From Bacteroidales bacterium (GTDB lineage Bacteria; Bacteroidota; Bacteroidia; Bacteroidales; UBA932), in assembly GCA_031551125.1 (NCBI GenBank), contig JAVBOB010000001.1:1-64000 (forward strand): a stretch of 64,000 nt of DNA, read 5' to 3'. Both the position numbers and the translations under genes were made by a program. How positions within the stretch are numbered: the first letter of the stretch is position 1; the number at the start of each line of letters is the position of its first letter. This document shows, one piece after another, positions 3,768-60,955 of the stretch. Below the pieces are notes generated by a model that had not been told where the DNA came from, searched no databases, and was given only the letters and a program-made list of their open reading frames with translations.

Positions 3768-4994
3768 TTAATTTGCTTGAAGAGATTGCATAAATTTGTT
3801 CTTCAATGTTTCGCGAACTTCGGCTACCCGTTCTTTCATTTCTTCCGGAAAATCGTCGGGATTTACGGGGGTAAATGTTGGCGATGCATTAGACTCTTCA
3901 ACACGCTTTAGCTCCACCAACGCTTCATTTATTAAGCCCATGTTGGCAAGCCTAACAGCAATGTAGTACAAGCCCGAAGCATTATCGTCGTCAATCACGC
4001 CATCCATGTAGGCTGCTTTTATTTGCGGGTAGTACTCTTTATGCTCTTTAATGGCAGAAATGAAAACGCCTGCATTATTGCATAGCTGGTCGCAAAAGCG
4101 CTTTCTACGCGCATTGGGAAACAAACGAATGAGGGTTTCAAAAACGGGAAAAGCATCCAGCTCTTTATTCAAGCAGCTGACAATAATATTGCTGGTGTAT
4201 AGTACAAGGTAGTCTGCACCTGTGGTTGATAGCTTATTGCCACTCCTATACAGCTCTTCCAGCTTAGCAATGAAGGCAGGAACGTTGGTAGCTTTTTCAG
4301 CTGCTGAAAACAGCTCGTAAATATCGTCGTCAGTAATTTCTTTGCCTGACGGTTGGGCTACAGGCGCTTTTGCTTCTTGCTTTTTGGGCAGCTGAGCAGC
4401 TACGTTTGGAATAACATTGTCCAAATCCAGATATTCTGCAACGCGCTTTAGGAATAACGAACCGATATTGCAGGCTACGTACTCTTCAATGTCTCCACTT
4501 TCGTGAGATGCTAAACAGAGCATGGGTTCACCCTGTGTGTTTTTTGCTTGTGGGTGATATACCCACCAGTCGGAGTAATCGGTAAGCGGACATTGAATAT
4601 CGCCGGGGTTGGTGAATAGGCTTAGAAAATCGCTATCGCCATCTTCAAACATTTCGGGTTCTAGGCTGCCAAGGTCACCCAGCTCCAGCGCCCAACCACC
4701 ATCATCGGGAAAGGTGATGAACTCGTGCTTTGCCATTATTTTTTTGTATGATGCAGGCCAGCCGGAGAAATCACCGCTTGTTGCTTCACTACAGGCAAGC
4801 TCTTTATCGTCGCCAAAGTGTATGGCTAGCAATTCAGCTTCATCTGACAGCTCGACCGATTTTGCTTGTTTCATAATGGCCTCTAAAACAGGTAAAAATC
4901 CATCCGAATCGGCGAGGTAGGAGAAGTGTTCAACCAGCTCCTTGCTTAAGTCTTTTGCCGCTGAGAGCTGCTTATAGAGTTCCGTATTTGTCAT
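3768..4994 (-). CDS. hypothetical protein (408 aa), possibly with a SUKH/SMI1-KNR4-like region
   Basis: Segment WPASYKKIMAKHEFITFPDDGGW...DWWVYHP...GEPMLCLASHESGD weakly resembles SMI1/KNR4 (SUKH) immunity domains. The assignment is tentative. Confidence 0.45.
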   Translation of the reverse strand: MTNTELYKQLSAAKDLSKELVEHFSYLADSDGFLPVLEAIMKQAKSVELSDEAELLAIHFGDDKELACSEATSGDFSGWPASYKKIMAKHEFITFPDDGGWALELGDLGSLEPEMFEDGDSDFLSLFTNPGDIQCPLTDYSDWWVYHPQAKNTQGEPMLCLASHESGDIEEYVACNIGSLFLKRVAEYLDLDNVIPNVAAQLPKKQEAKAPVAQPSGKEITDDDIYELFSAAEKATNVPAFIAKLEELYRSGNKLSTTGADYLVLYTSNIIVSCLNKELDAFPVFETLIRLFPNARRKRFCDQLCNNAGVFISAIKEHKEYYPQIKAAYMDGVIDDDNASGLYYIAVRLANMGLINEALVELKRVEESNASPTFTPVNPDDFPEEMKERVAEVRETLKNKFMQSLQAN

Positions 4995-53123: not shown

Positions 53124-54437
53124 ATGAAGAAGTTTTTCACTCTCTTATCGCTGGTTCTGGCAACAGGGCTTGTAGCTAAAGGGCAAATAAAGTACAAGGA
53201 GTACGATTTGCCTAACGGATTGCATGTAATTCTATATGAAGATCATGCAACGCCTAATGTAATGGTATCACTTATGTACCATGTTGGTGCAAAAAATGAA
53301 GACCCTGGCAAAACGGGTTTTGCACACCTTTTCGAACACCTTATGTTCGAAGGTTCTGAAAACATTGCACGCGGAGATTATTTTAAAATTGTACAGTCAA
53401 ACGGTGGCGAGCTAAACGCTAATACTACTCAAGATCGTACCTACTACTACGAAGAGATGCCTTCTAACCAGCTGGAGCTGGCGTTATGGATGGAGTCAGA
53501 GCGTATGTATCATGCCAAAATTGATTCTATTGGTGTTGCCACTCAAAAAGGTGTGGTAATTGAAGAAAAAAAACAAACGCAAGATAGCCGTCCTTACGGG
53601 TCGTGGATGTATGAAATCGGTAAGCGTGCGTTCACCGTTCATCCTTACCGGTGGCAAACCATCGGCTCGCCCGACCATATTCGCAACTCTACCTTTGACG
53701 ATGTATATAGCTTCTATAAAACGTACTATGTTCCTAATAACGCTGTACTGGTTGTTGCAGGAGATTTTCAGGAAAAGCAGGCTAAAGAATGGATTGAAAA
53801 ATACTATGCAGGTATTCCTAAAGGTACAAAGCCCATCCATCGTCCTACGGTTGTAGAGCCAGCGCAGAAGGCCGAAATTCGTGATGTGATATACGATAAG
53901 GTGCAGATGCCTGCGGTATTTATGGGATACCATACCCCGGCCATTGGGACAAAGGATTTCTATGCGCTGGATATTTTAAAAAGTATTCTGTCCGGAGGAG
54001 CCAGCTCTCGCCTAAAAACTAACATTACCGATAAAGGATTGGCGCTGGAAACGCTTATGTTCATTAATCCACAAGAGCAACCCGGACTAACCTACTTTAT
54101 TGGTATTCCGAATGCAGGAGGAACTCCCGAAGACATGGAGAATGCAATTAATGCGGAGTTAGAAAAAGTAAGAACCGAGCTGGTAGCTGAAGATGAATTC
54201 CAAATGGCTATGGCGGCTAAAGAATTTCAGCTGGCTTCCGGCATGGTGCGTCTTTCGGATATATCAGAAGAACTTGCCAACAACTATACTTATTTTAAAG
54301 ATACCGAACGGATTAACCGTGAGCTTAGCTTCTATGGTGAAATAACTCGCGAAGATTTGAGAGATGTGGCTAAGAAGTATTTGTCAAAAGACAACAGAGT
54401 GGTATTGTACTATTTGCCCGAATCACAAAAGAAGTAA
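53124..54437 (+). CDS. M16-family zinc peptidase (pitrilysin/insulinase-like), active subunit
   Basis: Signal peptide; inverted zincin motif GFAHLFEHLMFEG (HxxEH) with a downstream E. Confidence 0.85.
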   Translation: MKKFFTLLSLVLATGLVAKGQIKYKEYDLPNGLHVILYEDHATPNVMVSLMYHVGAKNEDPGKTGFAHLFEHLMFEGSENIARGDYFKIVQSNGGELNANTTQDRTYYYEEMPSNQLELALWMESERMYHAKIDSIGVATQKGVVIEEKKQTQDSRPYGSWMYEIGKRAFTVHPYRWQTIGSPDHIRNSTFDDVYSFYKTYYVPNNAVLVVAGDFQEKQAKEWIEKYYAGIPKGTKPIHRPTVVEPAQKAEIRDVIYDKVQMPAVFMGYHTPAIGTKDFYALDILKSILSGGASSRLKTNITDKGLALETLMFINPQEQPGLTYFIGIPNAGGTPEDMENAINAELEKVRTELVAEDEFQMAMAAKEFQLASGMVRLSDISEELANNYTYFKDTERINRELSFYGEITREDLRDVAKKYLSKDNRVVLYYLPESQKK

Positions 54438-54523
54438 TCTGCCAGTAAATAGAAAATGAAAAGTAAAGACATATTCAATAGCTGACGGTCTTTACCTACA
54501 ACGAAAAATAAAAATACAGACCA

Positions 54524-56611
54524 ATGAAAAAAATAGCCAATATACTAGCCACACTACTACTTTTTGTGGCTATGGCAAACGCTCAACAGCTAGATCGTAG
54601 CGTTCGCCCTTCTCCTGCACCTGCAAAAGAAATAAATATTAAGGATGCAAAAACATTTACGTTGTCTAACGGGTTAAAGGTATTTGTGGTTGAGGATAAG
54701 CGTGCTCCCATTGTTTACTACTCGCTTATGCTTGATGTTAAACCTGCTCTTGAAAGAGATAAGGTTGGTATGAAAGCAATGTTCAGCACGGTGATAGGAA
54801 CTGCTACAACAACTCGCAGCAAGGAGCAAATCAATAAGGAAATAGATTTAATCGGAGCATCTGCATCTGTTGATGCATCTGGCGGTAGCATAAGCTTCTT
54901 AAAGAAATACGAGACTAAAGCGCTGGAGCTAATGTCAGATCTTTTGCTTAATCCGGTATTTACACAAAGCGAATTTGATTTGAATATAGGTAAGGCAAAA
55001 AGCGAACTTTCAATGGTTGGAGACGATGCCAGTAGCGTTAACAAGCGGGTATCGGCAGCGCTTACTTATGGAAAAGAATTTCCTTCAGGAGAGGTTAGAA
55101 CTGCTGAAACGCTGGATAATATTAAGGTAGATGATTTACAAAGCTACTATAATACTTACTTTGCGCCTAATGTTGCTCGCTTGGTAATTGTAGGCGACAT
55201 TACAGAGGCCGAAGCAAAGGCAAACGTAGAAAAGTATTTTGGCAAGTGGCAAAAGAAAAACGTTCCTGTTGCCAGCTACACCATCCCTCAAGCACCTCAG
55301 GGAGCTCAGGTGGCAATGGTTGATAAGCCCGGTGCTGTTCAATCAGCAATTGACGTATCGTATCCGCTTAACTTTAAGATTGGAGCTTCTGATGAAATGG
55401 CTGCTTCTGTTATGAGCTATATACTTGGTGGCGGAAGTGCAGGACGCTTGTTCCAGAACTTGCGCGAACAACACAGCTATACTTATGGTGTATATAATAC
55501 GCTTTCATCAGGTGAGTTGGTTGGACGTTATAGCCTGACAGCCGGTCGTGGAAGTGCTGCTTCTGTCAAAAGTGCTGTCACCGATAGCGCCGTTTACCAA
55601 ATACTGGCAGAGATGAAGAGAATGATAAATACTCCGATTAGCGAGCAAGAGCTGAAGAATGCAAAGGCTTTTATAGCCGGAGGCTTCAGTCGCGGCCTTG
55701 AATCTCCCTCAACCATTGCCGCTTTTGCTGTGTCTATTGATAAGTATAAGCTGCCAAAGGATTACTACAAGACCTACCTGAAGCGGTTGAATGCCATTAC
55801 TGTTGCTGATGTACAAGCTGCAGCAAAGAAATATATCAGGCCTGAAAACGCTTGGATAGTGGTGACGGGAGATAAATCTCTTGCAGAAGGGTTAAAGCAA
55901 TTCGCCTCTAACAAAACCGTTCAGTTCTACGATATAAACGCTAACCCTATTGAGGCTCCTACCGCTAAAACCGCAAGTATCAGCGCTAACGAAGTAATCA
56001 GCAAGTATGTTGACGCTATTGGTGGTGTTGCAGCCATTGAAAAGATAAATGATTATAAGATTACGGCAGAGATAAGCGCAATGGGGCAGAAGCTAAATAT
56101 GACCCAGCTGTTCAAGAAGCCGAACTTTTCACTTACCAGCTTGGCTATGGGTGGTATGGTTGTTCAGAAAATGGCATTTAACGGGACAGCGCTAAAGGTA
56201 TCGGGTATGCAAGGTAACAAGGAGTTGACCGAGGGTGCCGAGTTTGATGAAATAAAGGATGGATCATCGGCTTGTCCAGAAATGAACTATGCGAAAAATG
56301 GCTACCGGCTTGCTGTTAAAGGCATAGAAAAATTAGAAGGGAAAGATGTATATGTGCTGGATGTTACCAAGGGCGCAAGTACTTCTACCGAATATTATGA
56401 TGTAGCAAGCGGGTTGAAGCTAAAGAAAGTAGCTACCGCAATGGGGCCTCAGGGGCCAATACAGCAAGTTACAGAATATGGTGATTACAGAACCGTTGAT
56501 GGCGTTAAATTTCCGTATAGCGTAAAACAAGCGGCAGGAGGAATGACAATGCCGGCAACTATTACTGCTGTTGAAGTAAATAAAGGCATAGAAAGCTCAC
56601 AGTTTGAATAG
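54524..56611 (+). CDS. M16-family peptidase homolog (partner subunit, lacks an obvious HxxEH) with a C-terminal extension
   Basis: Signal peptide; M16 N/C-domain fold pattern; paired with the upstream M16 gene as is usual for PqqL-like pairs. Confidence 0.7.
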   Translation: MKKIANILATLLLFVAMANAQQLDRSVRPSPAPAKEINIKDAKTFTLSNGLKVFVVEDKRAPIVYYSLMLDVKPALERDKVGMKAMFSTVIGTATTTRSKEQINKEIDLIGASASVDASGGSISFLKKYETKALELMSDLLLNPVFTQSEFDLNIGKAKSELSMVGDDASSVNKRVSAALTYGKEFPSGEVRTAETLDNIKVDDLQSYYNTYFAPNVARLVIVGDITEAEAKANVEKYFGKWQKKNVPVASYTIPQAPQGAQVAMVDKPGAVQSAIDVSYPLNFKIGASDEMAASVMSYILGGGSAGRLFQNLREQHSYTYGVYNTLSSGELVGRYSLTAGRGSAASVKSAVTDSAVYQILAEMKRMINTPISEQELKNAKAFIAGGFSRGLESPSTIAAFAVSIDKYKLPKDYYKTYLKRLNAITVADVQAAAKKYIRPENAWIVVTGDKSLAEGLKQFASNKTVQFYDINANPIEAPTAKTASISANEVISKYVDAIGGVAAIEKINDYKITAEISAMGQKLNMTQLFKKPNFSLTSLAMGGMVVQKMAFNGTALKVSGMQGNKELTEGAEFDEIKDGSSACPEMNYAKNGYRLAVKGIEKLEGKDVYVLDVTKGASTSTEYYDVASGLKLKKVATAMGPQGPIQQVTEYGDYRTVDGVKFPYSVKQAAGGMTMPATITAVEVNKGIESSQFE

Positions 56612-57043: not shown

Positions 57044-57685
57044 ATGAAAAAGGTAGCATTACTTATTATCTCTGTTTTATGCTTTGCCCCGTTTGTTCAA
57101 GCGCAACAACAACAAGAAAAGCAGGAAAAAGAAAGAAGAGTTCAGGTAAGAACAGCAAGACCCGACGTTGAAAGAAGGGTGGGCGAAATCCGCGAGCGTA
57201 TGGGCGGGATTCCTAACCTTACGCAAGAACAACGTGACCAAATGAAGACGCTTCGCGTTGAAATGATGAAAGAATCTAATACCGTTCGTAATCAAATAGC
57301 CGAAAAGCGTGCTCATCTGAAGAGTTTACAGGCTACTGATAACGCCGATATGAAGGCTATCAATAAAACAATTGACGAAATAGCATCGTTGCAAGCACAG
57401 CAAATGAAGGCTCAAGCCAACATGCAGGTAAAAACGCGTGCTTTACTTACTGATGAACAAAAAGTAATGTATGATGCACGTGGTAACAACATGCGCTTCA
57501 ACTTTAATACGAGTGGAAGAAAGTTCAACTTTGATGGTGATAACAAGCAATTCAAGGTAAGAGCGTTTAAGTTTGGTGATACCGATATGCCTAACAGCGA
57601 AGAGATAAATAAGATTGTTTCTGAACAGCTGGCAACTATGGATTTTGATTTCCCTTTTGATTTTGACTTTGATTTTGAAGAATAA
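57044..57685 (+). CDS. Spy/CpxP-family periplasmic protein (LTxxQ motifs)
   Basis: Signal peptide; LTQEQRDQMKTL and LTDEQKVMYDAR LTxxQ repeats; unusual C-terminal DFDFPFDFDFDFEE tail. Confidence 0.7.
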   Translation: MKKVALLIISVLCFAPFVQAQQQQEKQEKERRVQVRTARPDVERRVGEIRERMGGIPNLTQEQRDQMKTLRVEMMKESNTVRNQIAEKRAHLKSLQATDNADMKAINKTIDEIASLQAQQMKAQANMQVKTRALLTDEQKVMYDARGNNMRFNFNTSGRKFNFDGDNKQFKVRAFKFGDTDMPNSEEINKIVSEQLATMDFDFPFDFDFDFEE

Positions 57686-57719: not shown

Positions 57720-57760
57720 GAAGCGGGACACAGCAATACTGTGTCCCGCTTTATTTTTGA
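57720..57760 (+). terminator. Rho-independent terminator of the Spy-like gene
   Basis: AAGCGGGACACAG-caatact-GTGTCCCGCTT followed by TATTTTTG. Confidence 0.8.
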
Positions 57761-57894: not shown

Positions 57895-57944
57895 TGCACA
57901 GGGAGCACCGACTTTCTTCTAAGAAAGTCGGTGCTCCCTGTGCA
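57895..57944. repeat. perfect 50-bp palindrome (24-bp arms, 2-nt centre)
   Basis: TGCACAGGGAGCACCGACTTTCTTctAAGAAAGTCGGTGCTCCCTGTGCA, flanked by CTTAAC on both sides. It lies between convergent genes and has no T-tract. Confidence 0.9.
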
Positions 57945-58066: not shown

Positions 58067-59293
58067 TTACTCTTGTCCCACAATAAAACCGTTTGCAATG
58101 AACCCTCCATTATTACTTAGCTCCAGCGTGTAAGTTTCCTCGGTAATGTTCAGCTCGTCTATACTTATCAACTTAACGTTTATCAGCTTGCCTACATCAT
58201 AAACGGTAAACGTATCACCTGCCTCATACTTCACAACGGCTGATAGTCTGCCGTACTGTTTCGTTTTTTCCGGATTGTGTGATGCCCATCCTTTGTCGGT
58301 AAGGAAGGGATGGTCTGCAGTTGTGGTAATTTCTCGTCCGTTTTCCAGCTTCAGCCTCAGCAATCCACTATGCGTTACACAATGTACTTTTTCTACAGTA
58401 GCATAAGATAAGCTGCCATTATCGGGATTGTAGCTTACCACCTGCTGGCCAACCTTAATATCTTCAATGTTTGCGGTACTAATCTTATTACCTGTTTCGG
58501 TGAGTACCATGCTACCTTTTGCCAAACAGTGAACATCCATTCCGCCAAAATACAGCTCGGAAATCGCCGTATCATCATACTTATCGCCTTGGTAAACCTC
58601 CGTAATTACAAACTTTAGTATAGAGGCTTTACCATCTTTGCGACGCCCTATCGGACGTGGAAACTCAAAGGCTTGACAACCCATAAAATCCTCTAGCTGC
58701 AAAACCGCCAGCAACTCATCATTCTCGTACAAGTTAAATGTTTTTACACGCGAGTTGTTTTTCCATGCAGCTGGGTTCTTCTGGTAGCCGTTGTGAATGT
58801 AGCAAATGGTAGCACGTGCAGCACTGTTTCCAAACGTATATTTCAGGTACTCGCCTATACCGTAACCTGCCACACCTTCAACCCATGCCGTGCGCAAATC
58901 CCAATCACCGGACATGTCCGCACCATACTTGTTACTGCCATTTCGGGCTAACTCTGATGATACAGCCGTTTCGTAGCTTGCACCGCAGTACCAGCTACAA
59001 CCCATTGGCTCCATGTTCCACGGGGCTTGCATGCCTCCTTCATCACCGGCTATATCGGCATCATACGCCTTCTTCTGGTACTTACGGTATAGCTTCAGCT
59101 CATCCTTGGTAAATTTAAGCGTATCTTCCGGCTTATCGTAAGATCGGTATAGCAACGCCCATCCCCGTTCATCCTCAGCAGTCCACGCAACATACTTTTC
59201 AATCTGTATAGGCTTTAATACCGGAACATTGCCTTTCTGCGCCAACGCCTGTAGCGATAGCAACAGTACACCTGCAAGAAGTAGTTTTTTCAT
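58067..59293 (-). CDS. secreted protein with a C-terminal Hint (Hedgehog/intein-like, BIL-type) domain
   Basis: Signal peptide MKKLLLAGVLLLSLQALAQ. The C-terminal ~150 aa starts with C in VHCLAKGSMVLTETGNKISTANIEDIKVGQQVVSYN and continues ...ITTTADHPFLTDKGW (the TxxH block), ending with ...TYTLELSNNGGFIANGFIVGQE* (intein C-block-like ANG/F-I-V but with a Q-E terminus instead of HN). The track ORF N-terminus (to 59359) runs into the H-repeat, so I trimmed it to the signal-peptide ATG. Confidence 0.65.
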   Translation of the reverse strand: MKKLLLAGVLLLSLQALAQKGNVPVLKPIQIEKYVAWTAEDERGWALLYRSYDKPEDTLKFTKDELKLYRKYQKKAYDADIAGDEGGMQAPWNMEPMGCSWYCGASYETAVSSELARNGSNKYGADMSGDWDLRTAWVEGVAGYGIGEYLKYTFGNSAARATICYIHNGYQKNPAAWKNNSRVKTFNLYENDELLAVLQLEDFMGCQAFEFPRPIGRRKDGKASILKFVITEVYQGDKYDDTAISELYFGGMDVHCLAKGSMVLTETGNKISTANIEDIKVGQQVVSYNPDNGSLSYATVEKVHCVTHSGLLRLKLENGREITTTADHPFLTDKGWASHNPEKTKQYGRLSAVVKYEAGDTFTVYDVGKLINVKLISIDELNITEETYTLELSNNGGFIANGFIVGQE

Positions 59294-59325: not shown

Positions 59326-59410
59326 CGTCATTGCGAGCGTAGCGAAGCAATCTACTCAATAAATGATGAGATTGCTTCGCGATTCAAAAAACGAATCGCT
59401 CGCAATGACG
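59326..59410. repeat. H-module copy (solo) between the Hint-protein gene start and the gltX stop
   Basis: GCACCGTCATTGCGAGCGTAGCGAAGCAATCTACTCAATAAATGATGAGATTGCTTCGCGATTCAAAAAACGAATCGCTCGCAATGACGGTGC (near-perfect extended inverted repeat). Confidence 0.85.
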
Positions 59411-59419
59411 GTGCGTTGC

Positions 59420-60955
59420 TTATACTTTCTCTGGCTTCAGCGATTCCACCGCCTTATCTATTCTTTCCAGCACCTCGTTTTTTCCTATCAGCGCAGCAAT
59501 CTCAAACATGCCGGGGCCTTTGCTTTCGCCCACCACACAAAGTCGGAAAGCATTCATCACCTGTCCCATATTTAAGTTGTTTGCCGTAATCCAATCGTGT
59601 ATCTTATGTTCTGCACGCTCCTTCTCAAAAGGTTGTACCGCTGCCAGCTGCTCGCGCAGCTTGCCCATCAGCTCAGGTGTTTCTTCCTTCCAGTATTTTT
59701 TTACCACCTTTTCATCGTAGGTTGTGGGTGCGGTAAAGAAGTAAGATGACAAATCCCAGAAATCGGCAACAAACGTGGCACGCTCCTTTATCAAACCGCA
59801 TACATCGGCTACGTAACGGCTGTCTTGCGCAACGCCTTTTTCTTTCAAAATAGGTTGGTATAGCTCGGCCAGCTCATCGTTAGCCCGTTGTTTCATGTAC
59901 TGCTGGTTAAACCACTTTGCCTTGTCGGGGTTAAAGCGTGCCCCCGATTTAATTACACGGTCTAGGCTGAATAGCTTTATCAGCTCGTCCATCGTGAACA
60001 ATTCCTGCTCCGTACCCGGGTTCCAACCCAACAAGGCCAACAGGTTTACAAATGCTTCCGGAAAGTACCCGTCCTCCTTATATCCGCGTGAAACATCGCC
60101 TTCAGGCGATACCCAGCGCATGGGGAATACGGGGAAACCCAAACGGTCGCCATCGCGCTTGCTTAGCTTACCCTTACCATCGGGCTTTAGTAGTAGCGAC
60201 AGGTGAGCAAACAACGGCATCTCGTTCTCCCACCCAAAAGCACGGTATAGCAACACGTGCAGAGGAAGCGAGGGCAGCCATTCTTCGCCCCGAATAACGT
60301 GGGTAATCTCCATCAAATGGTCGTCAACAATGTTAGCCAGGTGATAGGTAGGCAGCATATCTACTGATTTAAACAACACTTTATCATCCAGCGTATTGGT
60401 GTTTACCACTACGTTATCGCGAATAATATCGTTAATCGATACGATTTCGTTAGCCGGAATTTTAAAGCGTACTACCCAATTCCCTTTTTCCAAACGTTGC
60501 TTCACCTCATCATTGCTCATGTTGAGTGAAGTTGCCATTTGCTCACGAATGGTGTAGTTGTAGATAAACGTTTCGCCTTTCTTTTCACAATCAGTACGCA
60601 GCTTATCTAACTCCTCCGATGTATCGAAGGCATAGTAAGCATGTCCCGATGAAATAAGCTGCTCGGCATACTTTAGGTAAATGTCCTTGCGCTCGCTTTG
60701 GCGGTAAGGCGCATGAGGGCCTCCAACGCCAACCCCCTCATCGAAGGTAATGCCGCACCAACGCAGCGATTCTATGATGTACTCTTCTGCTCCGGGTACA
60801 AAGCGGGCAGAGTCGGTATCTTCAATACGCAAAATAAAATCGCCGCCAAGCTGTTTGGCGAACAGGTAGTTGAACAAGGCTGTGCGCACACCGCCCATGT
60901 GTAAAGGCCCCGTGGGGCTTGGCGCAAAACGAACGCGTACTTTTTTTGATGACAT
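59420..60955 (-). CDS. gltX: glutamate--tRNA ligase
   Basis: [26 protein letters not shown] (HIGH class I motif) and KLSKRDG (KMSKS). Confidence 0.95.

Follow-up and report, generated by a model that had tools for sequence, protein, structure and literature searches.

What is a Hint domain doing at the very end of an exported bacterial protein, with nothing encoded behind it? The question is raised by one gene in a stretch of 64,000 nucleotides from a Bacteroidales bacterium (GTDB lineage UBA932; GenBank assembly GCA_031551125.1, contig JAVBOB010000001.1, positions 1 to 64,000, forward strand). This whole stretch is called the window below.

The answer favoured here, with a probability of roughly 60%, is that the gene encodes an exported glycan-binding precursor with a self-cleaving C-terminal Hint appendage, which would be removed without leaving a trace. 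The case is built from sequence comparison. The reading frame is intact and has these parts, where the conservation figures refer to 169 Hint-bearing homologues:

58067-59293, minus strand: intact open reading frame of 408 aa, from ATG at 59293 to TAA at 58067-58069
59240..59293, minus strand: Sec/SPI signal peptide as read from the sequence, residues 1-18, MKKLLLAGVLLLSLQALA, followed by Q19
59021..59239, minus strand: variable, mostly helical region, residues 19-91 (AlphaFold helices 39-53 and 63-81)
58529..59020, minus strand: NADase-type / F5/8-type-C (CBM32-like) domain, residues 92-255, ending in ..FGGMDVH (the N-domain)
58985..58999, minus strand: Cys99-Ser-Trp-Tyr-Cys103 (GCSWYCG), which forms a co-varying triad with His255
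58526..58531, minus strand: predicted scissile junction between His255 and Cys256 (cac tgt); Cys256 in 169/169, and the place where Hint-less homologues end
58070..58528, minus strand: Hint (BIL-type) domain, residues 256-408
58370..58372, minus strand: His308, a family-specific invariant (169/169)
58310..58321, minus strand: block B TxxH, Thr325-Ala-Asp-His328; Thr in 167/169 (99%), His in 169/169
58070..58075, minus strand: Gln407 at the intein terminal Asn position (variable) and Glu408 at +1 (Glu in 97%)
58067..58069, minus strand: TAA stop, immediately 3' of the Glu408 codon

A longer start, TTG at 59359, was rejected: it extends into a palindromic intergenic repeat, and the homologues all begin with MKK and a hydrophobic stretch. 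Upstream lies gltX (59420-60955), on the minus strand like the Hint gene. On the other side a Spy/CpxP-like LTXXQ gene (57044-57685, plus strand) is convergent with it. There is no coding sequence 3' of the stop: some 380 bp hold hairpins only, and then the convergent gene follows. The GC content is ordinary. A sigma-70 promoter scan upstream, of a kind that does not cover Bacteroidota promoters, gave no match. In tblastn searches of the window, queries for the N-terminal region, N-domain and Hint domain returned the gene itself only; neither a paralogue nor a split partner turned up.

The front of the protein is the easier part to name. The signal peptide would be cut between ALA and Q, and an alignment of the family shows this Gln19 conserved to at least 90%. 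Gln at +1 is the Bacteroidetes 'Q-rule' of signal peptidase I substrates (PMC5837995). A signal peptide with such a Gln argues for export of the precursor. The window protein has no lipobox Cys and, among the NCBIfam profiles, no match to a T9SS C-terminal domain; it is probably located in the periplasm or envelope. Residues 19-91 match nothing in Pfam or NCBIfam, and their alignment columns are variable.

The N-domain matches PF25302 (E=1.2e-38, 133.1 bits, cut-off 27) and NF047619 (E=1.8e-35, 121.9 bits, cut-off 38), and it is similar to the CBM32/discoidin beta-sandwich fold. The initial annotation, which was made from the letters of the DNA, had described a signal peptide and a discoidin-like, possibly carbohydrate-binding N-terminal part, and these matches agree with it. 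Domains of this type also occur joined to YkuD L,D-transpeptidase domains, in the two proteins P0180 and P0201, and this is a hint that the ligand may be peptidoglycan or some other glycan of the envelope. The functional part of the precursor is probably this discoidin-like domain, acting as a carbohydrate binder.

The C-terminal part had been called a Hint domain from three motifs, and all three are found in the reading frame: CLAKGSMVLTETG with Cys256, TTTADHPF with Thr325 and His328, and the terminal ..GGFIANGFIVGQE directly before the stop. The assignment to Hint is well beyond chance. Two profiles score above their cut-offs, Pfam Intein_splicing PF14890 (39.8 bits, cut-off 35.8) and NCBIfam TIGR01445 intein_Nterm (37.6 bits, cut-off 24.5). 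Among PDB sequences the domain matches the BIL (bacterial intein-like) domain 2lwy at 2e-5 and a DnaB mini-intein at 1e-4, and the TxxH and FxAN blocks line up. Both the domain search and the motif alignment that the initial annotation had named as checks thus came out in favour of Hint. The domain has the horseshoe-like Hint fold, and its position-1 nucleophile and block B TxxH line up with those of known Hints.

Which kind of Hint it is can be read from a profile of the family. With this profile, BIL2 from the BUBL locus of Tetrahymena (6y75/6tmm) scores E=2e-19 and the BIL of C. thermocellum (2lwy) 3e-13, while true inteins come in at about 1e-6 and Hedgehog at about 1e-4. Since BIL2 and 2lwy score above inteins and Hedgehog, the domain is placed as a relative of the BILs and not as a true intein. 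By sequence relationship it goes with the A-type BILs, better than with any intein, but the conserved His-Asn end of that type is absent. These profile scores make it a BIL relative whose A-type ending, His-Asn, has been lost. Among weaker, short relatives of the Hint an ending of the A-type BIL kind, ..LVHNK, is retained. The Hint profile search that bears on this returned only matches under 300 aa, and is therefore not a fair census of other architectures.

Other Hint profiles stay below threshold. PT-HINT (PF07591) reaches 20.7 bits of the required 27.7, and Pfam Hint (PF01079) 13.9 of 29.7. Pfam Hint_2 (PF13403), which we take to represent B-type BILs, matches weakly in 12 of 24 members, the window protein not being one of them. 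At the level of motifs the domain fits the B-type pattern, with intein N-terminal motifs present and the C-terminal motif absent, which would go with cleavage at the N-terminal side only.

A stand-alone exported Hint of the same subtype also exists: P0263 consists of a signal peptide, the residues QSH and a Hint domain.

Conservation of individual residues was computed over the 169 Hint-bearing homologues, whose mean Hint identity is 36%. At the N-terminal end of the domain hardly anything varies. Cys256 is present in 100%, the TxxH residues are as listed above, and Pro329 is conserved in 99%. The TADH of the window protein aligns with TANH in the DnaB intein, TFDH in 2lwy and TVNH in BIL2.

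The C-terminal end is another matter. Position 389, where block F has its Asp, is Thr in 93%. Position 406, that of the penultimate His, is Gly in 85%. Position 407, that of the terminal Asn, is Q in 33%, V in 28%, T in 19% and I in 11%, and position 408 is Glu in 164 of the 169. After Glu408 come 0-24 non-conserved residues. The register follows from setting FIANGFIVGQE of the window protein against FVANDIIVHN, followed by S, in DnaB and FFANGVLAHN in BIL2: Gly406-Gln407 stand where H-N should be, and Glu408 stands at +1. The initial annotation had the terminal Q-E replacing H-N, which is one position off.

The intein C-terminal splicing model TIGR01443 is matched by no member examined, the window protein included. 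There is neither a C-extein starting with Cys, Ser or Thr nor a terminal His-Asn, as a class 1 intein would have, and the stop directly after Glu408 bears out the earlier description as a BIL- or Hog-type arrangement rather than an intein within a host. Taken over the 169 sequences, this means strong constraint on the apparatus for the N-S acyl shift and loss of the one for Asn cyclisation and trans-esterification. The earlier suggestion was 'cleavage-only, or inactive'. Cleavage-only fits a domain with invariant Cys1 and TxxH, a variable residue in place of the Asn and no nucleophile at +1. Inactivity is unlikely given the invariant catalytic residues.

The invariant His308 was tried as the equivalent of the Hedgehog general base D46, and rejected since hhalign sets D46 opposite the variable Cys305. 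In the HMM alignment it lies two positions from H48 of BIL2, which is a Zn ligand (PMC8616854). It is possible that His308 has shifted onto the place of this ligand.

A Hint domain could also be retained without cutting anything, as a structural or binding module like the Hint-related AXH module. The degenerate C-terminal splicing motif is consistent with this, and AXH itself (PF08517) gives a sub-threshold match of 24.7 bits against a cut-off of 33, with 23 of 24 members matching. The stand-alone P0263 gives a hint that the domain may do something in its own right. Yet Cys1 and the Thr and His of TxxH are held invariant in 169 sequences despite the low mean identity of the domain, and the Hint-less proteins described next, which end at the scissile bond, are hard to explain without cutting. 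That the domain never cuts strikes us as very doubtful.

Residues 92-255, the N-domain on its own, were searched exhaustively by phmmer among 1.84 billion cluster representatives, with 4690 matches. The best 150 of these 4690 comprise 64 proteins with a Hint, 82 without and 4 with other arrangements. Of the Hint-less proteins, 79 out of 82 have zero residues beyond the equivalent of His255, and simply end in ...FDGxDVH-COOH.

The stop codons were read in the DNA of two Hint-less genes. One (L082) has GAT GTC CAT TAA, then 29 bp and an unrelated gene. The other (L084) reads GAC GTT CAC TGA; behind it lie sequence that is not Hint and a gene for a tRNA. These are ordinary stops, TAA in the one and TGA in the other, which rules out selenocysteine at a recoded TGA, or read-through at Cys1.

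The Hint-less proteins therefore end at the codon where the others have Cys1. From this the mature protein can be expected to end at His255, and the precursor to be cut there. Short of an experiment, these termini are the strongest support for the predicted autoprocessing.

The nearest N-domain relative of the window protein, P0122 with 64% identity, is Hint-less, and in a neighbour-joining tree of the N-domain (251 tips, 160 columns) Hint-bearing and Hint-less forms are interleaved. Fitch parsimony requires at least 40 changes between them; with shuffled states the mean is 67 and the lowest value 59. The absolute number of changes is inflated by noise in the tree.

The -1 residue has a story of its own. 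When Cys99 and Cys103 are both present, His255 is present 231 times and absent 0 times; when they are not both present, it is present 5 times and absent 13 times (Fisher p=5e-18, not corrected for phylogeny). If the Cys pair is replaced, by D, N, E, T or S, then His255 is replaced as well, by L, Y, N or F. The only highly conserved columns that separate the two groups are 99, 103 and 255, plus Gly104 of the motif.

Cys99, Cys103 and His255 co-vary as one site, which makes the -1 His part of the N-domain. The idea that the Hint specifically requires this His was ruled out: it goes with the two cysteines, and is retained in Hint-less proteins. In discoidin-type sandwiches both chain ends lie side by side, so the triad is best read as a single site that joins the ends of the domain. 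[quoted passage not shown] In the precursor it would directly adjoin Cys256. Neither this triad nor the homologues that end at the -1 His had been mentioned in the initial annotation.

The following course of events is proposed. The precursor would be exported by Sec and lose its signal peptide. After folding, an N-to-S acyl shift at His255-Cys256, promoted by Thr325 and His328, would turn the peptide bond into a thioester; this step is suggested by the invariance of these residues together with established Hint chemistry. The thioester would then be resolved without ligation, as a C-extein nucleophile and a conserved terminal Asn are absent, and most likely by hydrolysis.

Going by its register with inteins and BILs, Glu408 at the +1 nucleophile site would be the best candidate for a general base that activates the water. 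In splicing, the +1 residue must be able to reach the -1 carbonyl. By this logic the carboxylate of Glu408 would be well placed, and hydrolysis would be preferred. What is released would be the glycan-binding domain, with His255 as its free end, the same product as a Hint-less gene makes directly.

What the organism gains from this is a separate matter. The Hint may be beneficial, through timed maturation or its thioester chemistry, or it may be an intein-like passenger. A passenger sitting just before a stop codon, in a host that needs the free end, would have to keep its catalytic residues and could be lost only by exact deletion. That is also the pattern observed.

A thioester need not end in hydrolysis. 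It could instead serve for transfer, where the Hint activates His255 and the acyl group goes to an amine or hydroxyl of peptidoglycan, lipid, LPS or protein, so that the domain is covalently anchored and the Hint-less homologues are the soluble, unanchored versions. Conserved catalytic residues are equally expected if the thioester is used in this way, and there are precedents in Hedgehog cholesteroylation and in the ubiquitin-like conjugation of BUBL; BIL2 transfers its N-extein to lysine amines (PMC8616854).

Transfer is nevertheless unlikely in our estimation. No adduct-recognition region is found 3' of the Hint, where the tails are only the short, non-conserved ones, and the equivalents of Hedgehog D46 and C143 are not conserved either. 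The neighbourhoods show no conserved partner gene. Forms without a Hint, whose C-terminus is a plain carboxyl, are no rarer than the others and lie scattered among them in the tree, which means that the modification would be dispensable and would have been lost repeatedly.

A more specific version is a bacterial Hint that behaves like Hedgehog or BUBL. The His255 thioester would react with a nucleophile of the envelope, for example the amine of a peptidoglycan stem peptide, phosphatidylethanolamine or a hydroxyl on a glycan. This would form a tether that needs no enzyme and no ATP, with Cys99/Cys103/His255, and perhaps Cys256, as a possible metal or redox gate. We hold this version to be quite improbable.

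The predicted self-cleaving precursor is not peculiar to the window. The full-length protein has 574 relatives at E<=1e-3, and the best 120 of these 574 are 316-468 aa long, most of them around 400, with the same two domains. NCBI names them 'Hint domain-containing protein', 'NADase-type glycan-binding domain-containing protein', 'intein' or 'polymorphic toxin-type HINT...', and leaves some unnamed. At least 412 loci encode the family in a scan of one genome per species. Organisms were read for the 80 best-matching loci, and these are mostly Bacteroidota, including Dysgonomonas, Porphyromonas, Marinifilum, Aquimarina, Marivirga, Flammeovirga, Tenacibaculum and Chitinophaga.

Mean identity is 54% for the N-domain versus 36% for the Hint, which evolves faster. 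The similarities of the two domains correlate with r=0.67, and they are therefore mostly inherited together.

The surroundings of these 80 loci, about 13 kb or less each, were combined with 14 kb of the window into 81 stretches, and their open reading frames were clustered. Each of the 81 holds one copy of the family. A conserved operon partner was looked for and discarded, as the largest cluster of non-family reading frames occurs at only 9 of the 81 loci. None of these neighbourhoods contains a toxin domain or an immunity gene, and no neighbour is conserved among them. A PT-HINT arrangement, with the Hint before a C-terminal toxin and an immunity gene adjacent, is thus not seen here, and the Hint does not lie in a hypervariable region of a non-conserved secreted protein, but in a conserved architecture of about 400 aa.

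The initial annotation had linked the gene to polymorphic secreted proteins, and had proposed to survey the neighbourhood of its homologues. The survey came back empty in the sense just described, and the link is not supported: this is a conserved family, found in the genomes of at least 412 species, with a single copy per stretch and a sub-threshold PT-HINT score. A polymorphic toxin cassette is disfavoured because each locus has a single copy, the neighbours do not recur and a paralogue in the window is absent.

The same data bear on the idea that the protein is a remnant. It would then derive from a polymorphic toxin (PT-HINT) whose downstream toxin is gone, or from an intein, true or split, without its former C-extein. 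Some of its homologues are indeed named 'polymorphic toxin-type HINT domain-containing protein' or 'intein' by NCBI, and the LVHNK ends of the weaker short relatives resemble A-type BILs. A remnant is hard to square with close homologues that are all about 400 aa long, share one architecture and end 0-24 residues past Glu408. To this come the lack of a toxin domain, immunity gene or conserved neighbourhood, the PT-HINT score of 20.7 bits against 27.7, the missing Asn, +1 nucleophile and homing endonuclease, and a window that holds no separate C-terminal partner. Its probability is next to negligible.

If cleavage of the precursor at His255 is confirmed, nature would turn out to use a Hint widely as nothing but a C-terminal module that removes itself without trace. 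Intein tags engineered with an Asn mutation, which serve for protein purification and to make thioesters, would then have a natural counterpart. Replacing the +1 nucleophile by a conserved Glu would offer a simple model of how splicing machinery becomes a hydrolase. The Hint has been lost repeatedly and with codon precision, and these losses give an unusually clear evolutionary record of both the cut site and the mature protein. They also raise the question whether terminal Hints are useful, or are passengers kept active because the host domain needs its C-terminus free. Finally, there is a large subfamily of putative envelope glycan-binding domains, recognisable by GCSWYCG...FDGxDVH, with a probable Cys2-His site at the end of the chain.

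Parts of this have been on record. The domain content is already known to NCBI annotation as Hint or NADase-type glycan-binding. A literature search found no paper on this family, and none that pairs 'Hint domain' with 'discoidin'.

On the N-domain side, the relatives are the translocation domain of the S. pyogenes NAD+ glycohydrolase (PF25302; PDB 7ji1), of the same Pfam and NCBIfam family, and CBM32 modules, with which the N-domain shares its beta-sandwich. The streptococcal domain sits N-terminal to a toxin, whereas the one in the window precedes a Hint. In 7ji1, the chain ends ..TFG+1, without a counterpart of the terminal ..DVH His; the alignment begins past GCSWYCG, so that this motif is not covered.

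Hedgehog and Hog proteins are more distant, with a weak similarity of E ~1e-4. Their active-site residues are D46 (Asp/His) and C143 (PMC12054796). In the window family the equivalents, Cys305 and position 407, are variable. The sterol- or adduct-recognition region is absent from the window protein, the -1 residue is His and not Gly, and the host is bacterial. These hallmarks of a Hog- or Hedgehog-type domain are missing.

Compared to class 1 mini-inteins (Ssp and Npu DnaB), the window Hint lacks the C-extein, the terminal Asn, the penultimate His and the +1 Cys, Ser or Thr, and it has Thr389 for the block F Asp.

The A-type BILs are the closest. Both BIL2 of the Tetrahymena BUBL1 locus (6y75/6tmm) and 2lwy of C. 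thermocellum end in His-Asn, and perform C-terminal cleavage or splicing. The window Hint has a Gly, a variable residue and a near-invariant Glu instead, and then stops. The Zn ligand H125 of BIL2 corresponds to Thr389 here. BILs sit in hypervariable, non-conserved proteins (PMC7765530). The window Hint ends a conserved protein, with one copy per examined stretch.

New with respect to the described Hint classes is then a BIL-type Hint at the end of a conserved exported protein, which keeps the residues for N-terminal cleavage only and has a near-invariant Glu at +1. Also new is that it has natural Hint-less counterparts that stop at the scissile bond. In IMPACT-type vectors, engineered intein tags with Asn changed to Ala are used to make C-terminal thioesters, and these are what the window Hint resembles.

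The window protein's Hint domain carries a three-residue insertion, Lys-Ile-Ser, at residues 270-272 (window 58478-58486), in the first Hint hairpin. In the alignment, this insertion is missing in 167-168 of the 169 Hint-bearing homologues.

Hint domains are also found as proteins in their own right. The homologue P0263 (171 aa, positions 4001-4516 of locus L085) consists of a signal peptide, then Gln-Ser-His, and then a Hint domain ending in ..ANGILTGVEEL. This domain is of the same subtype as the one in the window, but here it is stand-alone and exported, and no gene for the N-domain (the NADase-type discoidin domain that precedes the window Hint) was found near it in L085. P0267 and P0277 are likewise Hint-only, with C-terminal ends ..AIE and ..VTE. 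Either such proteins have lost the N-domain, or the Hint domain has a role of its own. All matches of the Hint-profile search in the word-indexed protein set are shorter than about 300 aa, and its census of Hint architectures is therefore incomplete.

The surroundings of the Hint gene in the window hold the following features:

53124-56611, plus strand: a pair of exported proteins side by side, 437 aa and 695 aa long
57044-57685, plus strand: Spy/CpxP-like LTXXQ / Metal_resist protein with a signal peptide and a C-terminal FDFPFDFDFDFEE tail, convergent neighbour of the Hint gene
57720-57752: hairpin
57895-57944: inverted repeat TGCACAGGGAGCACCGACTTTCTT / AGAAGAAAGTCGGTGCTCCCTGTGCA, almost perfect and about 50 bp long
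59327-59409: element of about 80 bp, flanked by two inverted copies of the 13-mer GTCATTGCGAGCG
6851, 9380, 10843, 10943 and 16234: further copies of GTCATTGCGAGCG

The two adjacent exported proteins form one homologous family, cluster 12 of the neighbourhood clustering, and judged by eye were taken for putative M16-type peptidases. In the same clustering, the Spy/CpxP-like gene is not conserved as a neighbour of the Hint family.

The inverted repeat and the hairpin lie downstream of the Hint gene, in the convergent intergenic region. The terminator scan called the hairpin as a terminator of the plus-strand gene; the inverted repeat went uncalled because it is without a T-run.

On the other side, the element of about 80 bp lies after the gltX stop and ahead of the Hint gene's start, and looks like a REP/MITE-like palindromic repeat. 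At no more than one mismatch, its 13-mer occurs seven times in the window, versus 0.06 copies expected by chance. The element also accounts for a spurious longer TTG ORF of the Hint gene (MSRLLRYARNDG..).

The N-domain, too, occurs in other architectures. P0152 has BspA-type leucine-rich repeats fused to an N-domain with the ..DVH end. P0180 (863 aa) and P0201 (706 aa) begin their shared arrangement with the catalytic domain of a YkuD L,D-transpeptidase and continue with NADase-type discoidin domains, 3-4 of them in tandem; these fusions link the domain type to peptidoglycan-acting enzymes.
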